Assembly: GCF_988243305.1 (NCBI RefSeq)
Contig: NZ_OZ547136.1
Length of the DNA: 64,000 bases
Direction: 5' to 3' (one strand)
Each line of letters begins with the position of its first letter. Within the stretch, counting starts at the first letter, position 1. Below the pieces are notes generated by a model. The model was not told where the DNA came from, did not search any database, and worked only from the letters and a program-made list of their open reading frames with translations. The position numbers and the translations under genes were made by a program. Shown piece after piece: positions 51,629-53,846 of this stretch.

Positions 51629-52348
51629 ATGGCTACTCCACACATTAATGCAGAAATGGGCGATTTCGCTGACGTAGTTTTGATGCCAGGCGACCCGCTG
51701 CGTGCGAAGTATATTGCTGAAACTTTCCTTGAAGATGCCCGTGAAGTGAACAACGTTCGCGGTATGCTGGGCTTCACCGGTACTTACAAAGGCCGCAAAA
51801 TTTCCGTAATGGGTCACGGTATGGGTATCCCGTCCTGCTCCATCTACACCAAAGAACTGATCACCGATTTCGGCGTGAAGAAAATTATCCGCGTAGGCTC
51901 CTGTGGCGCTGTTCTGCCACACGTAAAACTGCGCGACGTCGTTATCGGTATGGGTGCCTGCACCGATTCCAAAGTTAACCGCATCCGTTTTAAAGACCAT
52001 GACTTTGCCGCTATCGCTGACTTTGACATGGTGCGTAACGCAGTAGATGCAGCTAAAGCACTGGGCATTGATGCTCGCGTTGGTAACCTGTTCTCCGCTG
52101 ACCTGTTCTACTCTCCGGACGGCGAAATGTTCGACGTGATGGAAAAATACGGCATCCTCGGCGTGGAAATGGAAGCGGCTGGTATCTACGGCGTCGCTGC
52201 AGAATTTGGCGCGAAAGCCCTGACCATCTGCACCGTGTCTGACCACATCCGTACTCACGAGCAGACCACTGCCGCTGAGCGTCAGACCACCTTCAACGAC
52301 ATGATCAAAATCGCACTGGAATCCGTTCTGCTGGGCGATAAAGAGTAA
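51629..52348 (+). CDS. deoD: Purine nucleoside phosphorylase DeoD (239 aa)
   Basis: Starts [36 protein letters not shown]. Confidence 0.95.
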
Positions 52349-52380
52349 TTGTGTTTCGCTGAAAGGCGAACGTCGTGTTA

Positions 52381-52413
52381 AGCCGGAGTGGGAGACCGCT
52401 CCGGCTTTTTATT
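52381..52413 (+). terminator. Rho-independent terminator of the deo operon
   Basis: AGCCGGAG-N10-CTCCGGCT followed by TTTTTATT. Confidence 0.85.
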
Positions 52414-52479
52414 ATCTATTCATTTCTCTCTCCAGCTTGAATATTTTCGCTATACTTTTCAGTGAAATGTGTTAATAAA

Positions 52480-52511
52480 TCTATTCAAGTATCTATTCAC
52501 GAATCTATTCA
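52480..52511 (+). repeat. Three direct repeats of TCTATTCA at exact 12-bp phasing, ending 4 bp before the hipH/yjjJ ATG (a fourth copy lies at 52415-52422)
   Basis: aaTCTATTCAag taTCTATTCAcg aaTCTATTCAtt, read directly at 52480, 52492 and 52504. Confidence 0.9.
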
Positions 52512-52514
52512 TTA

Positions 52515-53846
52515 ATGAGCGAACTGACCGATCTTTTATTGCAAGGGCCGCGTTCTGCCCCGGAATTGCGCCAGCGTCTGGCAATCAGTCAGGCGACGTT
52601 CTCACGCCTTGTTGCCAGAGAAGATCGGGTGATTCGCTTTGGTAAAGCACGGGCAACGCGATATGCACTGCTGCGTCCTTATCGCGGAATTGAGCGTATT
52701 CCCGTATGGCGAGTGGACGATGCCGGAAAGGCGCATAAATTCGCCGACATCCGGTTGTGCTGGCCGCAGGGAAGTTGTCTGGTAACAGGCGCAGATGGCG
52801 ACGAACAGTGGTTTGATGGTTTGCCCTGGTATTTGACCGATCTGCGACCGCAGGGGTTTTTGGGGCGCGCGTGGGGCAGGAAGTTAGCCGCGCAACTGAA
52901 TCTTACTGAAGATATCCGTCTCTGGCAGGAAGAAGATGTGCTCTACGCCCTGACCGTATTTAGCGGTGAATACACCGGCGGCTGGCTGGTCGGGGAGGGG
53001 AATTATCAGCGATGGATTACTGCACAACGCCCTGCGGCAATTCATCTGGATCAAAAACTCACCCGTTATGAACAACTGGCGCATGATGCACTGGCAGGAG
53101 AAATTGTGGGTTCTTCTGCGGGCGGCGAGCAGCCAAAATTTACCTGCTATGCACAAACGCCGTCAGGCAATAAACATGTGCTGGTTAAATTCACCGTGCC
53201 ACAGCAAACCGCGGTCAGCCAACGTTGGGGCGACTTGCTTATTGCGGAATCTATTGCCGCGCAAATCCTGCGCGACGGTGGGATCCACGCCATCGAGTCA
53301 ACGGTGCTTGTAACAAGTAACAGGCAGGTATTCCTTGAAGCGGAACGATTTGACTGCAAAGGTAACGATGGTCGCTTGCCCATTGTGTCGCTGGAGGCGG
53401 TGCAGAGTGAGTTTATCTCTTCTCCGGGATCGTGGCCGGAGGCTATGCGCCGTTTGTGTGAGCAACAACTTGTCACTCACCAGAGCGTGGCGCAAACAGA
53501 AGTGATCTGGGCGTTTGGGCGACTTATCGCCAACAGCGATATGCACGCAGGCAATTTATCATTTTATTTATCTGAACCACCATTTGCGCTGACGCCCGTC
53601 TACGACATGCTGCCGATGGCCTATGCACCAAACAGCGCCGGAATGTTGCGTGATGCTGCCATTGAGGTGAGGTTTGATCTTAACGTCAGTAAAAGTGCAT
53701 GGTTAACGGCGATCCCGCTGGCGCAGCAGTTCTGGCAAACGGTCGCCGGAGATCCGCGTATCAGCGAGGCATTTCGCCACATTGCACAAGAAATGCCGGA
53801 AAAAATCCGGCAAATCGAAGGGAAAGTTGCCCGCATGGGCGGGTAA
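52515..53846 (+). CDS. hipH: HipA-family Ser/Thr kinase with N-terminal HTH, HipH (YjjJ), 443 aa
   Basis: N-terminal HTH-like LRQRLAISQATFSRLV. HipA_C-type kinase core (GEQPKF...; catalytic NSDMHAGNLSF). Confidence 0.88.
   Translation: MSELTDLLLQGPRSAPELRQRLAISQATFSRLVAREDRVIRFGKARATRYALLRPYRGIERIPVWRVDDAGKAHKFADIRLCWPQGSCLVTGADGDEQWFDGLPWYLTDLRPQGFLGRAWGRKLAAQLNLTEDIRLWQEEDVLYALTVFSGEYTGGWLVGEGNYQRWITAQRPAAIHLDQKLTRYEQLAHDALAGEIVGSSAGGEQPKFTCYAQTPSGNKHVLVKFTVPQQTAVSQRWGDLLIAESIAAQILRDGGIHAIESTVLVTSNRQVFLEAERFDCKGNDGRLPIVSLEAVQSEFISSPGSWPEAMRRLCEQQLVTHQSVAQTEVIWAFGRLIANSDMHAGNLSFYLSEPPFALTPVYDMLPMAYAPNSAGMLRDAAIEVRFDLNVSKSAWLTAIPLAQQFWQTVAGDPRISEAFRHIAQEMPEKIRQIEGKVARMGG

Follow-up and report, generated by a model that had tools for sequence, protein, structure and literature searches.

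A putative operator of 12-bp-phased direct repeats ahead of hipH (yjjJ), a HipA-family kinase gene without an adjacent antitoxin gene

HipH (YjjJ) is a growth-arresting toxin kinase without an antitoxin gene, and its locus raises the question of what holds such a protein in check. Gerdes et al., who named HipH and noted the helix-turn-helix (HTH) in its N-terminal extension of ~100 residues, stated the control of the kinase as unknown (PMC8262856). A 2024 eLife study reports that the HTH is needed for toxicity and that HipH is located on the nucleoid, that c-di-GMP binds the protein with a KD of 7.6 μM, and that the dinucleotide raises hipH transcription only with the native promoter present (PMC11452175). 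Here we examine the DNA immediately upstream of hipH in a 64-kb window, by which we mean the whole stretch of 64,000 nucleotides that was analyzed, numbered from its first letter. An initial annotation, made from the letters alone, had described phased direct repeats running up to the hipH start codon and had proposed them as a plausible autoregulatory operator for the HTH of the kinase itself. The features on which the argument rests are the following.

52380..52407, plus strand: intrinsic terminator of deoD, a 12-pair stem with 8 G-C pairs and a T-run; upstream limit of the hipH control region
52415..52422, plus strand: distal copy, ATCTATTCATT, on the 5' side of the -35 and 65 bp ahead of repeat 1
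52451..52456, plus strand: probable -35, TATACT, aligning with TTTACC/TTTACA in other enterics; Reg-Seq '-35'
52474..52479, plus strand: probable -10, AATAAA, matched by TATAAA in other enterics; separated from the -35 by 17 bp and directly adjacent to repeat 1; Reg-Seq '-10'
52480..52487, plus strand: proximal repeat 1, TCTATTCA, from the sequence and TRF; predicted transcription start inside it or at its 3' end
52492..52499, plus strand: proximal repeat 2, inside a Reg-Seq repressor-type site (52492-52507)
52504..52511, plus strand: proximal repeat 3, its first half reached by the same Reg-Seq site
52515..53846, plus strand: hipH (yjjJ), 443 residues, from the open reading frame and RefSeq annotation; winged helix, beta subdomain and HipA-type kinase core
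52515..52679, plus strand: coding region of the winged helix-turn-helix, residues 1-55 (helix 1, 3-8; helix 2, 15-22; helix 3, 26-35; wing, 39-53)
52587..52607, plus strand: codons 25-31 (SQATFSR), start of the recognition helix, with S25, Q26, S30 and R31 invariant in canonical homologues

The four copies of TCTATTCA, read from the plus strand at 52415-52422, 52480-52487, 52492-52499 and 52504-52511, and the ATG at 52515 lie exactly where the initial annotation had placed them, with the 12-bp spacing it had given. The three proximal copies follow one another in exact 12-bp steps, the last ending 3 nt ahead of the ATG, and the unit common to the copies spans 9-11 bp (ATCTATTCA), longer than the 8 bp originally marked out. 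These four are the only exact matches to TCTATTCA on both strands of the 64-kb window (expected 1.43, sd 1.23), in which pairs of near matches (at most one mismatch) at 11-13 bp spacing likewise occur only within the array. TRF reports a tandem repeat at 52478-52511 with period 12, 2.8 copies and a score of 54, and when the 166-nt intergenic region was shuffled 20,000 times, an exact 8-mer never fell at three equally spaced positions.

The window carries the E. coli gene order deoB-deoD-hipH(yjjJ)-lplA-ytjB. With deoD ending at 52348 and its terminator lying upstream, and with the convergent lplA downstream at zero spacing (hipH abuts the lplA stop codon), hipH is monocistronic and has no adjacent antitoxin gene. 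The 15 nt before its ATG hold no AGGA, GGAG or GAGG, in agreement with the earlier remark that a Shine-Dalgarno (SD) sequence is missing there. The initial annotation had allowed that the true start might lie further downstream behind a normal ribosome binding site; the annotated N-terminus, however, aligns from residue 1 with its homologues, and residues 3-8 form helix 1 of the modeled winged helix. As there is also no in-frame start upstream of the ATG, these observations together indicate that the start codon is correct and the absence of a Shine-Dalgarno sequence real.

The architecture of the protein bears out the description of HipH as a HipA-family kinase with its own N-terminal HTH and no separate HipB. 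Pfam finds only HipA_C in full-length HipH (E=1.5e-20, residues 200-428), and the catalytic kinase motifs are conserved in the homologue alignments. AlphaFold2 confidently models the full-length protein with a mean pLDDT of 90 and a pTM of 0.88 (pLDDT 91.7 for residues 1-110), folding residues 1-55 as H1-S1-H2-H3-wing, followed by a beta subdomain at 62-100. When the N-terminal 110 residues are searched on their own, weak MarR, MarR_2, HTH_5 and HTH_24 matches appear in 16-23 of 25 family members (those to MarR_2 and HTH_5 in 20-23), and a profile of the N-terminal region run against solved structures gives generic HTH matches only, the best being B. subtilis DeoR (E=3e-4). Foldseek places the winged helix nearest to ArsR-type regulators (HlyU, SqrR, BigR and NolR; rmsd 1.6-2.0 Å over ~53 residues), a resemblance at the level of the fold, no Foldseek match of the N-terminal model having a significant E-value (all 0.2 or more); a sequence search for a solved structure of a HipH relative returned none.

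Where the array sits relative to the promoter can be read from published Reg-Seq mutagenesis of the yjjJ promoter, in which MG1655 position 4621716 is 0 and the range runs from -115 to +45; with the hipH ATG at MG1655 4621769, Reg-Seq position x corresponds to window position 52462+x. The RNA polymerase calls then fall at 52444-52456 for the '-35' (-18 to -6) and at 52471-52484 for the '-10' (+9 to +22), the latter some 36-41 nt before the ATG. A sigma-70 consensus scan found no promoter, a negative that was set aside: the weak TATACT-17-AATAAA emerges only from Reg-Seq and from the enteric alignment, where its counterpart is TTTACC-17-TATAAA. From the -10 position, transcription is predicted to start within repeat 1 or at its 3' end, at ~52485-52488, and to yield a leader of ~28-30 nt made of repeats, so the suggestion that the mRNA might be leaderless is not favored. 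For Lysobacterales, a leaderless mRNA would be compatible with the TTGACT box that precedes the repeats. With the hipH -35 and -10 placed immediately ahead of it, the array spans the transcription start and the leader in its entirety.

Reg-Seq further reports a repressor-type site at +30 to +45 (52492-52507), to which no factor was assigned and which overlaps repeats 2 and 3. This call comes from heat-shock data only, leaves repeat 1 unflagged, and stands at the edge of a mutagenized range that ended inside repeat 3; moreover, where a promoter is weak and AT-rich, mutations that strengthen it can pass for a repressor site.

Conservation of the repeats in other Enterobacteriaceae had been named as a check on their significance, and they are found there and well beyond, across proteobacterial classes. 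When 185,579 species, each represented by a single genome (596 Gb in all), were scanned for exact TCTATTCA-N4-TCTATTCA, at least 120 loci matched, among which, with only 16 bases specified, many chance matches are expected. Of the 120 matches listed, 36 have a HipH homologue directly downstream in the same orientation (35-64% identity; one of these a pseudogene), against 2 hipH-linked cases among the 120 matches listed for the same pattern in IMG/VR viral contigs. The hipH-linked matches come from Gamma-, Beta- and Deltaproteobacteria, and those listed include Enterobacter, Silvania, Buttiauxella, Yersinia, Pantoea and Proteus; Lysobacterales; Thermomonas, Luteibacter, Rudaea and Pseudoxanthomonas; and Comamonadaceae, Rhodocyclaceae, Burkholderiaceae, Chitinibacter and Geomonas. 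Among these listed matches the start codon follows the last repeat by 0-46 nt, and by 0-17 nt in 31 of the 35 loci with an intact hipH, and a further 15 spacings, on which the search pattern placed no constraint, measure exactly 12 bp as well. All sites in the 36 loci lie on the gene strand except for two isolated one-mismatch matches on the reverse strand; the copies are direct and on one strand, and palindromic half-sites of the kind found in the hipBA-type HipB operator are absent.

A second sample was drawn independently of the motif, by aligning 34 homologues and searching metagenome contigs with two kinase C-terminal peptide patterns, a procedure blind both to the HTH and to the upstream DNA. 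At least one exact TCTATTCA lies within 200 nt upstream in 51 of the 75 loci with upstream DNA, and 45 of the 75 carry at least two sites (at most one mismatch) exactly 12 bp apart. When 73 loci other than E. coli were scored, without any motif, for an 8-mer repeated with at most one mismatch within 70 nt of the start, period 12 appeared in 77%, period 24 in 42% and period 11 in 11%, with other periods at 0-4% and control windows in the same loci at 1-5%. The initial remark that the phasing departs from a helical repeat of ~10.5 bp stands, and the 12-bp period is a conserved trait of the family and not noise. Five homologues forming a subclade (L264, L293, L296, L302 and L326) space their repeats at 11 instead of 12 bp, together with the helix SQPTLSR and the wing GKARQ(S/T)QYA and similar.

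Arrays of the canonical motif occur in 52 of the 73 loci (71%) with 2-7 copies, namely 2 copies in 12 loci, 3 in 36, 4 in 2, 5 in 1 and 7 in 1. Their unit has the consensus W-W-A-T-C-T-A-T-T-C-A-N (WWA-TCTATTCA-N), with the core ATTCA 94-99% conserved across the 52 loci. The surroundings recur as well: the gap from last repeat to start codon is 1-7 nt in 38 of the 52, a TAnnnT (-10-like) hexamer ends no more than 1 nt from the first repeat in 41, and the layout of sites at -100, -35, -23 and -11 is shared with Enterobacter, Silvania, Buttiauxella, Yersinia and metagenome loci.

If the repeats are read by the winged helix of HipH, the two might be expected to vary together. In the N-terminal domain of canonical homologues S25, Q26, S30, R31 and Y50 are invariant (SQ-PT-V/L-SR; SQATFSR in E. 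coli), and ATTCA pairs at 12 bp accompany 50 of 61 helices of the form SQxxxSR vs 2 of 12 other helices, a contrast whose Fisher p of 2.6e-5 ignores relatedness among loci and in which several variant classes are single loci. Loci without TCTATTCA carry 12-bp-phased direct repeats of other sequence in the same place, together with a differing helix:

SRATLMR (two loci, L311 and L317): ATCGTTTCA, also given as TCGTTTCA
SPATLSR: TCGTTTCA / TATTTCA
NKSTLTR: TCGATGCA
DRSTVTR: TTGATGCA
VPPATLMR: GCAAATCA
SRPTLAR: TAGTTTCA
SQPTVTR or SQPTATR (three loci): TAATTCA

The variable bases of the repeat (its 5' half, TCTA) and the variable residues 26 and 30 suggest contacts that may set specificity.

The distal copy offers a separate line of evidence. 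Distances from the distal to the first proximal repeat fall at 32, 54, 64-67, 76-78, 86-87, 98 and 129-131 bp, and 23 of 27 cases lie within 2 bp of 65 ± 11k bp, with many of the loci being related (L090, L046, L123, L078, L069, L024, L048 and others). A Rayleigh test on these distances was set aside as proof of phasing, dominated as it is by the related 65-bp class; the pattern, in related loci, is suggestive of phasing on one face of the helix and of same-face looping. Being located 5' of the -35, the distal copies are not part of the transcript, and this speaks for sites that are recognized as DNA; in combination with covariation between repeat and HTH helix, a reader of double-stranded DNA, it favors double-stranded DNA as the form in which the repeats are recognized.

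In light of these results, we propose, with a probability of roughly 75%, that the four TCTATTCA copies constitute a putative autoregulatory operator for HipH's own winged helix. The proposal of the initial annotation thereby gains support from the same motif and phasing before hipH across bacterial classes, from the change of the repeat with change of the recognition helix, from a -35 and -10 immediately ahead of the array, and from a repressor-type site on repeats 2-3. That HipH binds the array we consider very probable, and repression is a likely outcome of such binding; we infer both, as well as cooperative head-to-tail binding and looping, from the arrangement of the sites. Each 12-bp unit of the three proximal repeats would take up one HipH molecule, in head-to-tail order, and the bound proteins would cover the transcription start together with the entire SD-less leader, so that RNA polymerase would be blocked either when it initiates or when it escapes the promoter. 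Looping to the distal site, 65 bp upstream beyond the -35, may assist this block, and the toxin would be held at a low, self-limited level from which c-di-GMP could raise hipH transcription by releasing HipH from the operator.

A bolder extension, which we regard as unlikely, treats the array as a scaffold on which HipH would assemble head-to-tail into a short protein-DNA filament, with a loop to the distal copy (65 ± 11k bp away). The filament would shut off hipH and at the same time keep the kinase, or else the reported DNase activity, inactive, so that operator DNA would replace the missing antitoxin, c-di-GMP would act as the release signal and repeat number (2-7) would tune the release threshold. 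If true, it would account for the published c-di-GMP induction of the hipH promoter.

The history of the locus within E. coli bears on how closely array and gene are tied. The array region occupies one place per genome in 5280 of 5426 complete E. coli genomes, and hipH is present in only about 1314-1343 of them; some 73% have lost the gene and kept the array. In these hipH-less strains (BL21, O157:H7, ATCC 8739 and others) the deoD terminator, the distal copy and the array are retained around a spacer of the same length, 57 bp, and unrelated sequence. The space from array to lplA is filled by an 87-residue XRE/HTH_3 gene (HTH87) on the minus strand (BL21 L002 3560-3965, corresponding to window 52415-53846), whose TGA stop is the reverse complement of the last TCA in the last repeat and into which the orphan hipH-type promoter points antisense. 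No match to the BL21-type spacer or to HTH87 that would indicate their source was present among the loci retrieved. Copy number varies from 2 in 2015C-4498 through 3 in most strains to 4 in EC96 and ETEC1739 (L003 2639-2682; L007), the 4-copy version being matched at 99% or more by 51 E. coli genomes.

Individual genomes show further rearrangements. A GTDB representative E. coli (L115, ~4990-5030) has spacer and repeat 1 deleted, so that the terminator is followed by ATCTATTCA-CGA-ATCTATTCA, as if the distal copy had recombined with the array. In E. coli FDAARGOS_944 (L006, 4063-5420), ISEc60 and IS1A fragments lie right after the deoD terminator, the array is gone and the HTH_3 gene has an internal stop. 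Outside E. coli, orphan arrays of 2-4 copies with enteric CGAA/AGTA spacers and without hipH are found in Pantoea rodasii, Pantoea sp. B9002 and Serratia fonticola (L008 1440-1500, L085 7490-7540, L079 270-300 and L100), L100 combining the array with a hipH pseudogene remnant, and related Pantoea species carry a distant hipH paralogue with the same motif at another locus (L047, L088). Such a paralogue might still occupy the orphan sites in Pantoea. The persistence of arrays without hipH would reflect either recent loss of the gene and slow decay or continued use of the sites, perhaps by a paralogue, or it may hint at a role independent of hipH. Six tandem copies of TTTATCTATTCA in AT-rich phage contigs (IMG/VR L173 2251-2318, L192 and L164) and six of TTCTATTCAGGC in a bacterial contig (L106 3456-3530) have no adjoining hipH homologue and may be unrelated tandem repeats.

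Three other explanations were weighed against an operator read by HipH. The repeats could act in the mRNA, either as an unstructured pyrimidine/A-U-rich leader that replaces the Shine-Dalgarno sequence in an S1-dependent manner, or as a translational control site for a protein, possibly HipH. An SD-like motif (AGGA, GGAG or GAGG in the 15 nt before the start) is present in only 1 of the 52 hipH homologues (metagenome loci, L248-L327), all copies lie on the sense strand, repeats 2-3 are transcribed given the Reg-Seq -10, and the leader RNA is less well folded than all but one of 200 shuffled versions (199 of 200; z=+1.8), an unusually unstructured state that may support SD-independent initiation. 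The extratranscript position of the distal copies and the covariation with an HTH helix nevertheless point away from RNA, as does the apparent placement of the Lysobacterales repeats between the TTGACT box and the start, and an Rfam search of the leader found no relevant family. We consider such an explanation improbable as a substitute for the operator, alongside which a role in the mRNA could exist. Still less probable, in our estimate, is that the sites belong to another host regulator, such as MarA or a response regulator that reads direct repeats, with HipH not binding them. Reg-Seq indeed assigned a repressor-type site at -24 to +18 (52438-52480) to MarA, but this stretch is the weak core promoter (TATACT-17-AATAAA) and not the repeats; mutations towards the promoter consensus could there look as if a repressor had been lost. 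Myc-tagged YjjJ, produced from the native locus, gave no peaks at all in ChIP-exo (PMC8464067); this is real negative evidence, of reduced weight because native expression is very low and only one target is expected. Retention of the array in hipH-less E. coli speaks for another reader too. Against this, the motif tracks hipH across classes without such regulators in common and changes with the HipH helix, and the single array per E. coli genome is not what a regulon-type site would show.

The repeats might, finally, be a neutral variable-number tandem repeat (VNTR) that arose by slippage; alternatively, they might mark the border of a replaceable gene cassette as a scar or hot spot of recombination. 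The variation between 2 and 4 copies among E. coli strains, the breakpoint of the hipH/HTH87 replacement exactly at the array and the one deletion between distal copy and array all fit such an origin. Copy number is thus polymorphic as in a neutral repeat, yet sequence, period and position are conserved across proteobacterial classes, even where the proteins share only 35% identity, an outcome that slippage without selection cannot yield, and recombination at the array is explained more simply as a by-product of the repeats; we give this origin a very slight chance. A related interpretation of the array as a cassette boundary or recombination site, drawn from the hipH/HTH87 dimorphism, was dropped for the motif's tracking of hipH across classes.

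An operator read by HipH would provide a concrete and cheap experimental handle on a growth-arresting kinase without an antitoxin gene. The analysis names the cis element, the likely reader residues (Q26, S30 and R31) and natural specificity variants, and the ~73% of E. coli strains that lost hipH and kept the operator are natural test strains. The same operator would offer a mechanism for the promoter-level induction of hipH by c-di-GMP and a candidate identity for the factor-less Reg-Seq repressor site at the yjjJ promoter. Its grammar is unusual in setting a monomer-type winged helix on 12-bp direct repeats ahead of a gene family that is almost universally SD-less.

Toxin-antitoxin-style autoregulation is a kind of system already known, and the overlap of sites with the module's own promoter and start, as in type II toxin-antitoxin operators, is present at hipH, where the -35/-10 abut the array. 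The grammar, in which a toxin-fused winged helix meets 12-bp direct repeats of variable copy number and an SD-less leader, appears undescribed; literature searches for the motif or a HipH operator found no description among the papers covered. The operators of hipBA are palindromes, TATCC-N8-GGATA, read by dimers of a separate Xre-type HipB. The hipH locus resembles hipBA of E. coli K-12 in that the promoter of a HipA-family toxin is overlapped by several sites for the module's own HTH (as predicted for HipH), with negative autoregulation expected, and it differs in having 12-bp direct repeats, a winged helix fused to the kinase and no antitoxin gene. Closer in geometry are OmpR and PhoB, the latter on the 11-bp units of the pho box, where a winged helix likewise reads direct repeats that follow one another head-to-tail at roughly one helical turn, each combining a conserved core with a short A/T spacer; the HipH period, however, is 12 bp (77% of loci), with 11 bp in a small subclade (11%), the fold is ArsR/MarR-like and not OmpR-like, and the sites overlap start and leader, suggesting repression rather than activation from upstream. 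The ArsR/SmtB and MarR repressors, whose members HlyU, SqrR, BigR and NolR are the closest structural matches of HipH residues 1-55 and which also account for weak Pfam matches, act as dimers on inverted repeats, whereas the HipH sites all share one orientation. Omega on 7-bp heptads, ParR on parC and MetJ on 8-bp metboxes employ ribbon-helix-helix folds and other periods, and with these the likeness is one of logic only: the number of phased repeats, 2-7 for HipH, would set cooperative occupancy.
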